Sequence record: SRR22947727_398
Length of the DNA stretch: 64,000 nt
Direction: 5' to 3' (one strand)
This document shows positions 36,865 through 42,212 of the stretch, one piece after another. The number at the start of each line of letters is the position of its first letter. Position 1 is the first letter of the stretch. Both the position numbers and the translations under genes were made by a program. The notes below the pieces were generated by a model. The model ran no database searches. It saw nothing but the letters and a program-made list of their open reading frames with translations, and was not told the origin of the DNA.

Positions 36865-38457
36865 TTACCAGAAAGCCGCATAAAGCGCTATCAGGGTTAG
36901 ACCTATAATTCCTGACCACATATTAAAGCTCGTGGATGTCTTAAAGTTTATATCACCCAAGTTAACTGATTGCTCCTTACTAGGAGCACTTGTGAGCTTT
37001 GACACAATCACACCTAATGCTGTGCAGCCTAGGAATATTGCCCAGATTCGATTTACAAACTGAAAGTCAGGGAAGATGATAGCTACTGCAAATGATAAAA
37101 CAATAGATGCAATTAGCATGGCATATGCTCCTGATGAGTTTGCGGATTTATAAAACATACCCAACAAGAAAACAGAGACCACTCCTGGAGCTACGTACCC
37201 AGTTAATTCTTGAACGGTTTGAAAAGCACTTTCCATATTTTGAAAAATTGGCTGAGCAATTATAACTGCAAAGATCATTGCGCTGACTGCTGTTAGCCGC
37301 CCAATCATTACGTAATGAGTCTCAGTACGTCCTGATTTAGCCGTTTTATAAATATCCATGGTAAATATTGTTGATATAGAGTTCATCATTGAAGCCAAAG
37401 AAGATACTATCGCTGCAACCAAAGCAGCAAATATTAAACCGCGTAAACCGCTTGGCATTATGCGCATTACCTCAGGATATGCCTTGTCCGTTTTGTCTGC
37501 TAACACTTCTGCATTTAGTGCACTAAATTCGGGCGTGGCAAGCATAACAGCGGCTATACCAGGTAATACTATAATAAGCGGCATCAATAACTTCAAAGCA
37601 GCAGCAAAGACCAAGCCTTTTTGAGCCTCTTTAATATCTTTAGCTCCCAAAGCGCGTTGGATGATATATTGATTAAAACCCCAATAATTAAGATGAAGTA
37701 TCCAAAGTCCGCCTAATAGAGTCCAAATACCAGGCATTGTATCATAACCATACTGATCTTTTTCAAATATCATATCAAATTTATCGGGAAGCTCAGTATA
37801 CATTCTTTTAAAACCACCAAGAACACCACTATCTCCGCCGATTATACCCATAGTAAGCCAGGCAATAATAAATCCACCGATTACCAGTATGACTACTTGG
37901 ATAATATCAGTTAATGCCACCGCCTTTAATCCGCCCCAATATGAATAAAGTATAGCAAACCCTCCAAGAGCTGCCATACTCGGCAGTATTGCAAGACCTG
38001 TGAGAGTATTTACAGCAAGAGCGCCCAACCAAAGAACAGTTGTTAGGTTAACTGCAGTATATAGAAATATCCAATATCCTGACATCAAGGTTTTCACACC
38101 TGATCCGTATCGCGTTTCTAAAAACTGTGGCATTGTATAAATTTCACGTTTAAGAAATATTGGTAAAAAGTATTTCGCTACCAATATTAGGACTATTGCC
38201 GCTTGCCACTCATAAGCAGCAATTGCTAAACCAATACGAAAGCCCTCACCTGACATTCCTATTATTTGCTCAGCAGATATATTGGCCGCTATCAGAGAAG
38301 CGCCAATAGCCCACCAAGGAAGGGACTTTCCTGCTAAAAAATAATCTTCCGTGTTTTTAGAATGACCGTCTTTTTCTCGTGATACATACAAAGCAACGCC
38401 CAACAGCATGACTGCGTAAGCACCAAGAACCCATAAATCTAAACTCGATAATGACAT
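36865..38457 (-). CDS. sodium:sugar symporter (SSS family, SGLT-like)
   Basis: DYFLAGKSLPWWAIGASLIAANISAEQ, YEW, YWGFNQYIIQR, AAIVSSLAS. Confidence 0.93.
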   Translation of the reverse strand: MSLSSLDLWVLGAYAVMLLGVALYVSREKDGHSKNTEDYFLAGKSLPWWAIGASLIAANISAEQIIGMSGEGFRIGLAIAAYEWQAAIVLILVAKYFLPIFLKREIYTMPQFLETRYGSGVKTLMSGYWIFLYTAVNLTTVLWLGALAVNTLTGLAILPSMAALGGFAILYSYWGGLKAVALTDIIQVVILVIGGFIIAWLTMGIIGGDSGVLGGFKRMYTELPDKFDMIFEKDQYGYDTMPGIWTLLGGLWILHLNYWGFNQYIIQRALGAKDIKEAQKGLVFAAALKLLMPLIIVLPGIAAVMLATPEFSALNAEVLADKTDKAYPEVMRIMPSGLRGLIFAALVAAIVSSLASMMNSISTIFTMDIYKTAKSGRTETHYVMIGRLTAVSAMIFAVIIAQPIFQNMESAFQTVQELTGYVAPGVVSVFLLGMFYKSANSSGAYAMLIASIVLSFAVAIIFPDFQFVNRIWAIFLGCTALGVIVSKLTSAPSKEQSVNLGDINFKTSTSFNMWSGIIGLTLIALYAAFW

Positions 38458-38512
38458 TATTTCCCCTAAAAATATTTTACCCTAATATAATCATAAGGAT
38501 AATTCAGCATTA

Positions 38513-38526
38513 TGACAGCGCTGTCA
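38513..38526. promoter_or_regulatory. LacI-family operator 3 (upstream of the SSS-GH3 operon)
   Basis: Perfect palindrome TGACAGCGCTGTCA. Confidence 0.88.
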
Positions 38527-38677
38527 ACTCAAAGGGTTTAATTTAAAGGTTAAAATAGAAAGAAACAAACAAGAAATTTAAGTAAATTAAAAGATTTAAT
38601 AAATTGCAGATATAAACTATTAAGATAAATCGTAGTAAATTTATAAATCAGATTATAGAAATAACCATATATCAAAA

Positions 38678-39133
38678 ATGACCATAATAAATTTAAATGA
38701 ACTTGCTTGTACAACTGGAGCTCTGATTGGAATAGATCCAGGTACTAAAACACTTGGTATTGCATCTAGCGATATAACTCGATTGATAGCAACACCTATA
38801 ACAACAATTAAAAGAACAAAATTTTCTCAAGATGCTGAAAAATTATTTACAATTTATGACAATTACAAAGCTTCAGCAATTGTTGTTGGCTTACCCATAA
38901 ATATGAACGGAACGTACGGACCTCGCACTCAATCTGTAAAGGACTTTTGCAATAATTTATTGAGTATTAGAGATTTGCCTATTTTTTTCTGGGATGAACG
39001 ACTATCCACAATAGCAGTCAAAAGAGGAATGATTGATGCAGACCTCACTAGAAAAAAACAAAAAAAGTATATTGATAAACTCGCAGCCTCCTACATATTG
39101 CAAGGAGTCTTGGACAGACTAAGAGCTAAATAA
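38678..39133 (+). CDS. ruvX: pre-16S rRNA nuclease YqgF / RuvX
   Basis: GIDPGTKTLGIA, VGLP, WDERLST, DKLAASYILQG. Confidence 0.93.
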   Translation: MTIINLNELACTTGALIGIDPGTKTLGIASSDITRLIATPITTIKRTKFSQDAEKLFTIYDNYKASAIVVGLPINMNGTYGPRTQSVKDFCNNLLSIRDLPIFFWDERLSTIAVKRGMIDADLTRKKQKKYIDKLAASYILQGVLDRLRAK

Positions 39134-39152
39134 ATATTTAAAAATTGAATAC

Positions 39153-39186
39153 TTGACATTGTACGAAATTTTCGTACATGCAGATA
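39153..39186 (+). promoter_or_regulatory. putative pyrB promoter with a perfect 19-bp palindromic operator
   Basis: TTGACA at 39153-39158; TGTACGAAA-T-TTTCGTACA at 39160-39178; TACATG at 39175-39180 as a candidate -10; ATG at 39187 with no SD. Confidence 0.72.
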
Positions 39187-40344
39187 ATGACTTATTCAAA
39201 AAATATTATAGATAACATATTCGGCGGAATTCGCCCGACCTCAAGAGCTTTAGGTAAAGCTGCGACAACAATACAAGGATGGTATGATAGTGGAACTATT
39301 CCACAAAAACACTGGACTGATATAATAAATGCAGCGAAATCTTTTGACCATACTTTAAACTCAGAAGACTTCTTCCCAAAGCAACTTTCGAGACTGGAAT
39401 CATTTGGCTATCCTTTTAATAAACTCCATTGTCTTTCCATTGATGATTTTAACAGACCCGACATTGAAACACTGTTATCGCTAGGCGCACATTATCTTGA
39501 TCTCAATATCCAAAAAAATACAAATAACAGAGTATTAAAGGGTAAAACATTAATTAATCTATTTTTTGAAAATTCCACAAGGACAGAAAAAAGTTTTGAA
39601 TTGGCAGGCAAACGACTTGGGGCGGATGTAATCTCAATGCAGATCGCTAATAGTTCTGTTAACAAAGGGGAAACCCTAATGGACACCGCAGTAACGCTAA
39701 ATGCAATGAATCCAGATATTATTATAGTTAGACATAGCGCATCAGGAGCCCCTGCATTACTATCGCAAAAAGTTAGTTGTTCAGTCATTAATGCTGGTGA
39801 TGGAATTCACGAACATCCTACGCAAGCACTCCTGGATGCACTAACAATAAAATCTGCGTTTAAAAAAATTTCTGGGTTAAGAGTAGCAATTTGCGGTGAC
39901 ATACTCCACTCACGGGTGGCGAGGTCAAATGTAAAATTACTTAACATGCTTGGTGCAGAAGTACGCTTAATTGGTCCTAAAACCTTATTGCCCTCTGAAG
40001 CTGAAACTTGGGGGGTAAATATTTTTAATAATATGAAGGATGGACTAGAAGACTGTGATATAATTATGATGCTGCGCCTTCAAATAGAGAGAATGTCTGA
40101 TGCATTAATACCTTCTAAGCGTGAGTACTTTCATTTCTACGGATTAGATAAAGAAAAAATTGCGTATACAAAAAGGCGAACATTAGTAATGCATCCGGGC
40201 CCTATGAACCGAGGAGTAGAAATTAGCTCTGAAATAGCAGATGATGAAAAAATTAGCTTGATAAAAAAGCAAGTTGAGACTGGGGTCGCCATGCGAATGG
40301 GAATATTACACGCTCTGTCTAATTCTCAGGACAGCATAAAATGA
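39187..40344 (+). CDS. pyrB: aspartate carbamoyltransferase catalytic subunit with fused N-terminal Cro-like HTH domain
   Basis: Intact ATCase motifs [35 protein letters not shown] and HPGP. They are preceded in frame by about 65 aa: [48 protein letters not shown]. Confidence 0.93.
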
Positions 40345-41615
40345 ATATCACTACCATAATTAATGCAAGAATTATTAACCCAGAAGATGGTTATGACAAA
40401 CTTGGTTCTATTCTCATTGAGTCAGGCTTAATATCAGATTTTGGACCTGATGTGCAAGCCAAAGGACAGATAATTGATGCTAATGGCCTTATATGTTCAC
40501 CAGGTCTTATTGATATGCGAGTAAATACTGGAGAGCCGGGTAAAGAAAACCGTGAAACTATATCAACAGCTGCCAAAGCGGCGGCAGCAGGTGGTATTAC
40601 CTCAATTGTTTTAATGCCTGAAACCAATCCTGCAATTGACGATATTTCATTAGTTGATTTTATAAATCGTAAATCAGAAAATGCACCTATTAACATCTAT
40701 GCGGCTGGAGCCCTTACCAAAAGTTTAGATGGGAGCACTTTAACAGAGATTGGGTTAATGTCAGAAGCTGGCGCAGTAATGTTTTCAAATGGAGCATTAC
40801 CTATTAAAAGCGCTCAAACAATGAGAAGACTATTGTCTTACTCTAGTAATTTTGATTGTTTAATATCTAATCGACCTATCGAGAGTTCATTAAGTATTAA
40901 CACAGCTGCTCATGAAAGTGATTTCTCACTACGCTTAGGACTTCCATCATCTCCTTCAGTTTCTGAGCGCATTATAGTAGAGCGCGATATAGCCCTTGCA
41001 GAGCTCACAGGTGGGAAATTATTGATAGATTTAATTTCAGCTTCAGAGTCATTAATTGCAATTAAACAAGCTAAACTCAAATATTCTAATATTTCATGTT
41101 CAGTTAGTATTAATCATTTAAGTTTAAATGAAAAAGATATTGGTGACTATCGAACATTCGCTAAATTAGACCCACCATTAAGAGAGGAGTCCGACCGACT
41201 AGATTTACTAAATGGTATTAATGATGGAACCATAGACGTAATAGTTTCATCTCACGATCCTCGTCCAGCAGGAGAAAAACGTTTACCTTACTCCCAAGCA
41301 GCTTCAGGTGCCATAGGGCTTGAAACACTTCTAGCAGCAGGTCTGTCATTAGTTGCAGACAAACAACTAAACTTGATGAATTTTCTTGCAACTTTAACTT
41401 GCAATCCTGCTTCCCTCTTAGGCCTAAAAAGTGGAAGAATAAAAAAGTCAGCACCTGCAGATCTTATAATATTTGATCCTAATGCCCCTTGGGTATGTAA
41501 AGGTAAGAGTTTACTATCGAAATCAAAAAACACACCTTTCGATGGAAGGTTAATGACTGGAAGAAATATAAAAACCATATGCAAAGGAAAGCTTGTATTT
41601 GACTCAAGTAATTAA
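40341..41615 (+). CDS. pyrC: dihydroorotase-like protein, probably inactive PyrC' (ATCase structural subunit)
   Basis: DHOase fold ([32 protein letters not shown]), but the metal ligands are substituted (DMRVN, SNRP, IDLIS, SSHDPR); ATAAAATGA junction overlaps the pyrB stop. Confidence 0.85.
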
Positions 41616-41633
41616 GAAATATACGAGCATAAA

Positions 41634-42212
41634 ATGCAAATTCTTATTACTATTTTAGTAGGCTACTTATTAGGATCAATCCCATTTGGCTTCATTATAG
41701 TTCACCTCAATGGAAAAGGTGATATACGTAAAATTGGGTCTGGAAATATAGGTGCAACTAACGTTCTAAGGACTGGCTATAAAAGTATTGCAATACTGAC
41801 TTTATTTTTAGATGGATCTAAAGCTGCAATAGCTTTTTTAATTTTTGATTATTTCTATGGTGGAAGTTTTGGATTAATAGCTGGTGGATCAGCATTAATT
41901 GGACATTGCTACCCAGTATGGCTAAAATTTAAAGGCGGAAAAGGTGTAGCTACTTTTTTTGGTTTCCTTCTAGCATCATGCTGGATAATTGGGATATTAA
42001 TGGCATTAGTTTGGTTAATAATTGCCTTAATATCAAGAATATCTTCTCTTTCTGCTATTATAGCAGCAATTTTAACACCACTGACCGCATTGTTTTTTAA
42101 TAACTCTAATCTCGCAATAGTATCTGGAATTTTAACTATTGTTATTATTATCCGACACATAGAGAACATTATTCGTATCGCTAATGGAACAGAAAGTAGG
42201 TTTGGAAAGTAA
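41634..42212 (+). CDS. plsY: glycerol-3-phosphate acyltransferase PlsY
   Basis: YLLGSIPFG, GSGNIGATNVLR, GHCYP, FKGGKGVAT, RHIENIIR. Confidence 0.96.
   Translation: MQILITILVGYLLGSIPFGFIIVHLNGKGDIRKIGSGNIGATNVLRTGYKSIAILTLFLDGSKAAIAFLIFDYFYGGSFGLIAGGSALIGHCYPVWLKFKGGKGVATFFGFLLASCWIIGILMALVWLIIALISRISSLSAIIAAILTPLTALFFNNSNLAIVSGILTIVIIIRHIENIIRIANGTESRFGK

Follow-up and report, generated by a model that had tools for sequence, protein, structure and literature searches.

We analysed a 64,000-nucleotide (nt) stretch of DNA from sequence record SRR22947727_398, hereafter the window, in which the gene for the catalytic chain of aspartate carbamoyltransferase (ATCase), pyrB, opens with a small Cro-type helix-turn-helix domain and is preceded by a perfect 19-bp palindrome set within its promoter. 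The palindrome is probably the operator of the enzyme's own N-terminal domain. Promoter, operator and domain would then form a portable, leaderless Cro cassette that, once fused to PyrB, placed pyrB and the pyrC′-type gene behind it under negative autoregulation. We infer the DNA binding, the sign of its effect (repression as opposed to activation) and the site of transcription start. The features on which the argument turns are as follows.

39153–39158, + strand: −35 element TTGACA of the pyrB promoter, from the sequence; TTGAC is kept in 18/18 pyrB fusions
39160–39178, no strand assigned: 19-bp palindrome, putative operator, from the sequence, a repeat finder and conservation
39160–39166 and 39172–39178: conserved core of the palindrome, TGTACGA and TCGTACA, with a 5-nt A/T-rich spacer between them
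39175–39180, + strand: −10-like hexamer TACATG, within the right arm of the palindrome, 16 nt past the −35 element
39187–39189, + strand: conserved pyrB start codon ATG, predicted 5′ end of a leaderless mRNA
39187–39372, + strand: Cro-type helix-turn-helix domain, N-terminal, about 62 residues (NF046037, E-value 1.4e-13)
39373–39426, + strand: linker between the Cro domain and the ancestral PyrB N-terminus
39427–40344, + strand: ATCase catalytic chain (PyrB), stop codon included (NF002032; Pfam OTCace_N and OTCace)

The gap between ruvX, which ends at 39133, and pyrB is 53 nt long. Positions 39153–39189 read TTGACA-T-TGTACGAAA-T-TTTCGTACA-TGCAGATA-ATG. The palindrome follows the T at 39159 and consists of TGTACGAAA (39160–39168), a T at 39169 and TTTCGTACA (39170–39178), and the repeat finder returned it as two 9-nt arms that are 100% complementary and separated by 1 nt. 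The sequence past 39178 is TGCAGATAATG. The A of the start codon at 39187 is the seventh nucleotide after TACATG. A mechanically called open reading frame (ORF) opens earlier, at an in-frame ATG at 39178, and the start common to all 18 orthologues is 39187. An earlier note, made from the bare sequence, had listed TTGACA, the palindrome, the 16-nt spacing, TACATG and the ATG at 39187, and all of them are where it placed them. Its statement that the window holds no second full copy of the palindrome also held, as a search with the 19-mer at up to three mismatches found no second site in the 64-kb window, the single site matching on both strands. The expected count in the window is 0.02, and two matches were reached by 0/100 shuffles. 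The note had further seen no Shine-Dalgarno sequence and thought a terminator unlikely. GGAG, GAGG and AGGA are indeed absent from −16 to −4 upstream of 39187, there are no terminator-like sites in 38500–39500, and no U-tract follows the palindrome. An intrinsic terminator or pyrBI-type attenuator was rejected on the same count. A LexA box of the SOS response was also set aside, without a formal test: the CTGT...ACAG ends recall the gamma-type box, with a spacing of N13 instead of N8, and in Alphaproteobacteria the LexA box takes the form of a direct repeat.

Four marine metatranscriptome runs of one study match 38300–41700 at 95–100% identity. Strain differences fall at 39106, 39112, 39279, 39316 and elsewhere, none of them within 39153–39189. 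The assembled contigs span the ruvX-pyrB gap as well as the divergent region upstream of ruvX; such contigs cannot resolve 5′ ends and may include DNA.

A single open frame, 39187–40344, joins the NF046037 domain to an NF002032 ATCase, and the fusion product has 385 residues. The enzyme part reaches equivalog cut-offs, with 399 bits for NF002032 (cut-off 263) and 311 bits for TIGR00670 (cut-off 237). Domain-less orthologues begin just ahead of a (D/E)GYPF(E/S)K motif, and the window ATCase carries about 80 extra N-terminal residues. The NCBIfam model NF046037 ("carph-isopro domain-containing protein"), which names a domain and not a function, reaches 50.8 bits (cut-off 38) over residues 14–60 (ORF numbered from 39178). 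We built a profile from 16 orthologous domains (A1); among 1.84 billion representatives it matched 1659 proteins at E ≤ 1e-3, and most of the 150 best of these have a length of 62–120 residues. These relatives give consistent sub-threshold matches to the Pfam families P22_Cro, YdaS and Phage_CI_repr, and match PHROGs annotated as DNA-binding protein or transcriptional repressor. A second profile (A2, 63 sequences, window domain first) was compared with solved structures and matched Xfaso 1 Cro (3bd1, 4.5e-8), the Cro hybrid XPH1 (5w8y, 8.8e-8), P22 Cro (1rzs, 6.3e-5) and N15 Cro (2hin, 3.7e-4). The AlphaFold model built from A2 has a predicted local distance difference test score (pLDDT) of 88.4 and helices at residues 3–12, 15–22, 26–35, 40–52 and 59–62, with confidence falling past residue 62. 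In a Foldseek search with it, ranks 1–6, 8 and 9 are Cro chains or a Cro hybrid, at probabilities up to 1.00 and template modelling (TM) scores of 0.58–0.66. By family profile and predicted fold the N-terminal domain is of the all-alpha Cro type, which agrees with the Cro/CI-type layout proposed in the earlier note, and the candidate recognition helix is ..ATTIQGW... The ratio of nonsynonymous to synonymous changes per site (pN/pS) is 0.18 for the domain (153 pairs) versus 0.27 for a 150-codon catalytic stretch (78 pairs), both rough values given that synonymous sites are near saturation. Purifying selection on the Cro domain is no weaker than on the catalytic stretch.

A word-indexed homologue search with the window domain reached only close relatives, from Hellea and Litorimonas (Alphaproteobacteria, Maricaulales, Robiginitomaculaceae; Hellea balneolensis is a named species). 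The nearest genome, G001, is 97% complete and has 93% of the sampled words in common with the window. The fusion was found in 16/17 Hellea genomes and in one genome of each of two further genera (G072 and G335). We compared 18 pyrB-fusion promoters: that of the window, those of 15 other loci of genus g1 (Hellea), and those of L035 and L052; L001 was left out as near-identical. Aligned on the motif, the promoters follow the pattern TTGAC-N2-TGTACGA-N5-TCGTACA. Both the left and the right arm are identical in 17/18, and the spacer between them is 5 nt long and A/T-rich in all 18. The majority-base frequency, 0.95 within the block, is 0.44 over the preceding 30 nt and 0.52 over the 7 nt that follow. 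TTGAC stands 34 nt from the start codon in 13 promoters (the window among them), 35 nt in three and 33 nt in two, and the position of the start codon is kept in 18/18 (ATG in 16, GTG in two). The palindrome block is, in this alignment, a phylogenetic footprint of the pyrB fusions. The perfect 9-bp arms of the window are a local extension of the conserved 7-N5-7 core, seen in the window's species group only.

The PyrB catalytic part is present in 46/46 family genomes, with or without the domain. The earlier note had proposed this very comparison as a test: the palindrome stands in 18/18 promoters with the domain and in 0/15 without it. Neither arm was found within −300 to +50 of the 15 domain-less pyrB orthologues, and no significant inverted repeat was found there either. 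The closest domain-less pyrB genes, whose enzymes are 72–77% identical, have the same TTGACTCT −35 element as the fusions. In our reading, their promoters continue with TA(A/C)(A/G)NC 17 nt past the −35 element, and an approximately 17-nt leader then runs to GAGRGG-N5-7-ATG. In the fused genes the −35 element and a TACA-type −10 element are retained, the palindrome occupies the spacer, and leader and Shine-Dalgarno sequence are both missing. Both states occur within one genus twice (G072 versus G028; G335 versus G325), and the gain or loss of the domain is therefore recent. Across these orthologues the palindrome tracks the presence of the domain and not that of pyrB or the pathway. As a separate observation, extra direct copies of (TT)GACTCT, one or two in number and spaced about 10–12 nt, stand just upstream of the −35 element in several pyrB promoters, both of genes with the Cro domain and of genes without it (L018, L019, L013, L009, where they lie upstream of TTGAC, and L072; none in the window). 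These could be duplicated −35 elements or sites of another factor.

The same arrangement occurs ahead of other genes. RibBA (Pfam DHBP_synthase plus GTP_cyclohydro2) carries the domain, with the same type of recognition helix, in two genomes of another family in the same order. In one, the upstream sequence is TTGAG-TA-TGTACGA-AAAAA-TCGTACA-N9-ATG (L036), with a perfect palindrome. The other (L008) reads TTGAC-AC-TGTACGA followed by a non-complementary CCATAAA, with 34 nt to the ATG. A stand-alone 90-codon frame with the same helix type (L038) has several copies of the arm around its promoter. Among 301 genomes of the order the perfect pattern was found in five and a reversed-pattern control in nine. 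Of the five perfect sites, four immediately precede a domain gene and the fifth falls in an unrelated 412-aa frame. In the 101 genomes of the family, 8/8 perfect sites are at pyrB fusions, and of the one-mismatch sites 1/6 is at a fusion and 5/6 are in unrelated DNA.

G001 has one NF046037 match (54.9 bits), with no second member at E ≤ 0.1, and one perfect site. At up to three mismatches it has six sites per strand versus 26 for the reversed control. Three of the three-mismatch sites are inside frames of 146–624 aa, and two more (contigs C80 and C91) were outside the comparison. The earlier note had suggested a scan for further sites at carAB, pyrD/E/F and the active pyrC. In G001 none was found upstream of other genes, and a regulon was rejected since no second upstream site turned up among the G001 sites looked at. 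A dedicated autoregulator fits, because no regulon sites were found in this genome.

We surveyed the NF046037 family more widely in a sample of 401 alphaproteobacterial genomes, of which 82 have a match (the tally includes G410, whose locus was not used). The highest-scoring members in this sample are the N-termini of Mic60-like membrane proteins, and among the eight of 30 loci for which the whole frame was read, six were of this kind. The remaining members are stand-alone genes or fusions to enzymes and other proteins. Besides RibBA, the fusion partners are a second PyrB lineage (L140 and L144, L140 being 51% identical to the window protein), ArgB-like amino-acid kinases, a HisS/HisZ-like protein, a carboxyltransferase and a NarJ/TorD-type chaperone. 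The fusion loci L140 (283–1455), L144, L141, L143, L145, L112 and L136 have palindromes of their own, one or more each, close to a promoter that stands about 35 nt ahead of the start codon. In the Mic60-like loci L097, L102, L113, L114, L116 and L118 the domain is the cytoplasmic N-terminus, with a very conserved helix, FGGIRPMAAKLGVxVTTVQGWKERG, and P0051, a representative of the type, matches Pfam Mitofilin.

For a comparison we set 29 non-Mic60 loci against 38 controls (23 Mic60-type loci and 15 domain-less pyrB). An inverted repeat in −70 to +3 with a shuffle p ≤ 0.05 was found at 9/29 loci and at 0/38 controls (Mann-Whitney 2.5e-6 on the extension score). A crude count of 7-nt arms separates the sets weakly, with a perfect palindrome at 7/29 versus 2/38. 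A −35-like TTG(A/C) stands 33–37 nt ahead of the start at 20/29 loci versus 0/38 controls, and a strict Shine-Dalgarno sequence at 1/29 versus 22/38. These counts support the leaderless layout proposed for the window, as far as sequence can tell. The palindromes of diverged members include ATATCGA-N5-TCGATAT, TGATTAC-N5-GTAATCA, TTGCG-N7-CGCAA and TATTCATAT-T-ATATGAATA. The helices T-T-(V/I)-Q-G-W and S-T-V-Q-Y-W pair with CGTA-containing arms, (S/P)-A-V-S-(N/G)-(W/Y) with TTCA...TGAA, and S-N-V-H-R-W with TTGCG...CGCAA. In our reading of what is a small table, like recognition helices go with like half-sites.

These observations suggest the following mechanism. The palindrome at 39160–39178 would be the operator of PyrB's own N-terminal Cro domain, placed in a promoter made up of TTGACA, a 16-nt spacer and TACATG so that it fills the spacer and takes in the −10 element. 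Transcription is predicted to start at, or within 1–2 nt of, the A at 39187 and to yield a leaderless mRNA. As the fusion protein accumulates, two Cro domains would occupy the half-sites TGTACGA and TCGTACA, whose centres are 12 bp apart. The bound domains would keep RNA polymerase off the promoter, since the operator takes up the spacer and extends over the −10 element. The levels of PyrB and of the translationally coupled pyrC-like product would in this way be held constant by negative autoregulation. Promoter, operator and Cro frame would together constitute one portable cassette, found as a stand-alone gene and, in alphaproteobacteria, fused ahead of several biosynthetic enzymes. Leaderless translation is plausible in this lineage because it is common in the related Caulobacter, for which excerpts of one study give 375 leaderless mRNAs, or 9.6% of coding sequences, translated as efficiently as leadered ones (PMC4117421).

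A number of points weigh against this mechanism. At the promoter, TACATG fits only 3/6 positions of TATAAT, and a promoter scan with the E. coli consensus does not call a promoter here. TACATG does, in our reading, resemble the TA(A/C)(A/G)NC elements found 17 nt past TTGACT in domain-less pyrB promoters. With no terminator between the genes, a transcript reading through from ruvX into pyrB may exist. Two of the 18 fusions start with GTG, and GTG is a poor start codon on leaderless mRNAs in E. coli. At the RibBA fusion L008 only the left arm of the palindrome is present. At the level of the protein, ATCase catalytic chains are trimers and a palindrome calls for a dimer, so a trimeric enzyme would have to present two Cro domains to one dyad. 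The window domain taken alone has no Pfam match even at E ≤ 1 and no PHROGs match at E ≤ 0.01. The link to Cro would accordingly run through the family profile and Foldseek matches of weak E-value (0.06–1.3 overall, 0.06–0.6 for the Cro ranks), not through the window domain directly. Such weak values are expected, because the domain has 60 residues. Within the family, the Mic60-type members have no palindrome or fixed −35 element and often have a Shine-Dalgarno sequence, and the domain is therefore not always an autoregulator. The palindrome of the second PyrB lineage is placed ahead of the −35 element, where an activator could bind as well. Finally, the 29 loci are not independent (the pairs are L008/L036, L140/L144, L141/L143 and L042/L050), and the controls are G+C-richer.

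An extension of the mechanism, which we regard as doubtful, is that access to the operator is gated by the state of the enzyme (the trimer, or a PyrB-PyrC′ assembly) or by carbamoyl phosphate, aspartate or nucleotides. PyrB would in that case be a metabolite-sensing trigger enzyme through which the flux of pyrimidines acts directly on transcription, and the mobile cassette a general evolutionary means of self-regulation in alphaproteobacteria, used in PyrB, RibBA and the ArgB-like, HisZ-like and carboxyltransferase fusions.

It is unlikely that the fused Cro domain binds the palindrome and activates or tunes the promoter instead of repressing it. The weak −10-like hexamer is of a kind that a bound domain could help, as activators bound in the spacer or next to the −35 element do, and the palindromes of the second PyrB lineage and of the ArgB-like fusions lie just upstream of the −35 element, where activators typically bind. 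The window promoter, however, already has an optimal spacer of 16–17 nt and a perfect TTGACA, and domain-less pyrB promoters of sister genera use an equally "weak" TA(A/C)(A/G)NC without any palindrome. A site lying over the spacer and the −10 element is the classic geometry of occlusion by Cro and CI.

We likewise give little credence to the palindrome being the operator of a separate regulator encoded elsewhere in the genome. What speaks for such a regulator is that one would not usually expect a trimeric enzyme to serve an operator of dimer type, and that we infer the pairing of domain and palindrome. The site, however, occurs once per genome and only at domain genes of three kinds (pyrB, ribBA and stand-alone), one chance site aside, and sister species without the domain are also without the site. 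G001 has no second NF046037 member, at the threshold given above, that could take the part. A pathway regulator should also have further sites, and none was found in G001.

Still less probable is that the block is conserved only as a core promoter brought along by the cassette, its symmetry having no function in binding. Since the right arm overlaps the −10 element and the block begins 2 nt past the −35 element, part of the conservation would be promoter constraint. This does not account for the left arm: it sits in the spacer, which in sigma-70 promoters tolerates any sequence, yet it varies no more than the right arm (each identical in 17/18). Diverged members moreover keep the symmetry, with both arms changing together. 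An RNA hairpin in a ruvX read-through transcript, for instance one masking or exposing the start region that lacks a Shine-Dalgarno sequence, is very improbable: there is indeed no terminator between ruvX and pyrB and the region can fold (minimum free energy −11.4 kcal/mol, z −1.9), but the fold is marginally better than shuffles (9/200 fold as well), both arms are invariant with no covariation, L008 has the left arm but no complementary partner for it, and a conserved −35 element stands at a fixed distance immediately upstream with no U-tract after the palindrome.

Autoregulation by the fused Cro domain can be compared with several known systems. The profile and fold likeness is to the all-alpha phage Cro proteins (Xfaso 1, 3BD1; N15, 2HIN/6ON0; P22, 1RZS; Pfam P22_Cro, PF14549, and YdaS, PF15943). 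Common to both are a domain of about 60 residues, relatives that are mostly small and stand-alone, and a palindrome over the own promoter, which the domain here would be expected to bind. Unlike in the phages, the domain forms the N-terminus of a housekeeping enzyme in a chromosomal operon and is not an immunity gene; there is a single operator versus a set of three, and no partner CI gene is seen. The fused gene is chromosomal, between ruvX and pyrC-like/plsY/topA, and is not a stand-alone protein of a phage or prophage immunity region.

BirA, PutA and NadR are bifunctional enzyme-repressors, or "trigger enzymes". The archaeal RbkR is likewise presented as a bifunctional enzyme-repressor in excerpts of PMC5397151. 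As in these, a metabolic enzyme and a DNA-binding domain are joined in one polypeptide that would be expected to control genes of its own pathway. In BirA, PutA, NadR and RbkR the binding of DNA is gated by the ligand or reaction of the enzyme, whereas the PyrB fusion gives no sign of gating. It also differs in that its DNA-binding module is a Cro cassette that came with promoter and operator and recurs on unrelated enzymes.

Control of gene expression at a pyrimidine pathway step is familiar from the leader attenuator of E. coli pyrBI and from attenuation by the RNA-binding PyrR. It is also known from carAB, which RutR, PepA and PyrH regulate according to excerpts of PMC2952853. In contrast to pyrBI and PyrR, the pyrB fusion has no leader peptide, terminator, U-tract or predicted leader, and control would be by a domain appended to the enzyme itself. 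The gene lambda cI, transcribed from P_RM, is a leaderless, autoregulated repressor gene. The pyrB fusion resembles it, and the leaderless genes of Caulobacter, in having the promoter at a fixed short distance, no Shine-Dalgarno sequence and an operator over the promoter. Unlike in lambda cI, the product is a 385-residue enzyme fusion at the head of a biosynthetic operon.

Our full-text searches, with subscription journals and supplements outside their scope, returned no description of the fusion or of "carph-isopro". Enzyme-repressors and autoregulated leaderless Cro/CI genes are both known, and it is their combination, and its recurrence on several enzymes, that appears to be undescribed. 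ATCase is the standard textbook example of allostery, and its gene serves textbooks likewise as an example of attenuation. The same step is apparently controlled here in a third way, by a repressor domain joined to the enzyme. The fusion is not a one-off, as a Cro cassette with promoter, operator and a start lacking a Shine-Dalgarno sequence precedes several unrelated biosynthetic enzymes. Such a cassette would offer a housekeeping gene a simple route to negative autoregulation in one recombination step. The operator-helix pairs across the family could serve as natural orthogonal repressor-operator parts. Operator and domain are both small and well defined, which makes the model directly testable.

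Two genes flank the fusion in the window.

38678–39133, + strand: ruvX (Pfam RuvX, 2.4e-40)
40341–41615, + strand: dihydroorotase-like gene (pyrC or pyrC′), whose start overlaps the pyrB stop

The pyrC-like gene is probably a member of the pyrB operon, because its start overlaps the pyrB stop codon in an ATGA at 40341–40344. Its product falls under all dihydroorotase equivalog cut-offs (best 487 versus 645 bits) and passes only the broad TIGR00857. It may be of the non-catalytic PyrC′ type, a partner of ATCase.

Two minor observations concern further NF046037 matches. Most of the larger Hellea genomes (L026–L034) have a second, weak NF046037 match; the protein is about 180 residues long, contains the motif ..GLSQ..LA..C.V.QSTVANWERGGHIPR.. 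and looks like a CI/LexA-type helix-turn-helix repressor with a C-terminal extension. On contig 1 of G136, at about 3.92–3.96 Mb, three family members (L039, L050 and L051) lie within 40 kb, and L050 has the upstream string CCTGTATGTTGTCTACAG in common with L042 of a different genome. The G136 region may be a prophage or mobile region with the stand-alone form of the cassette.

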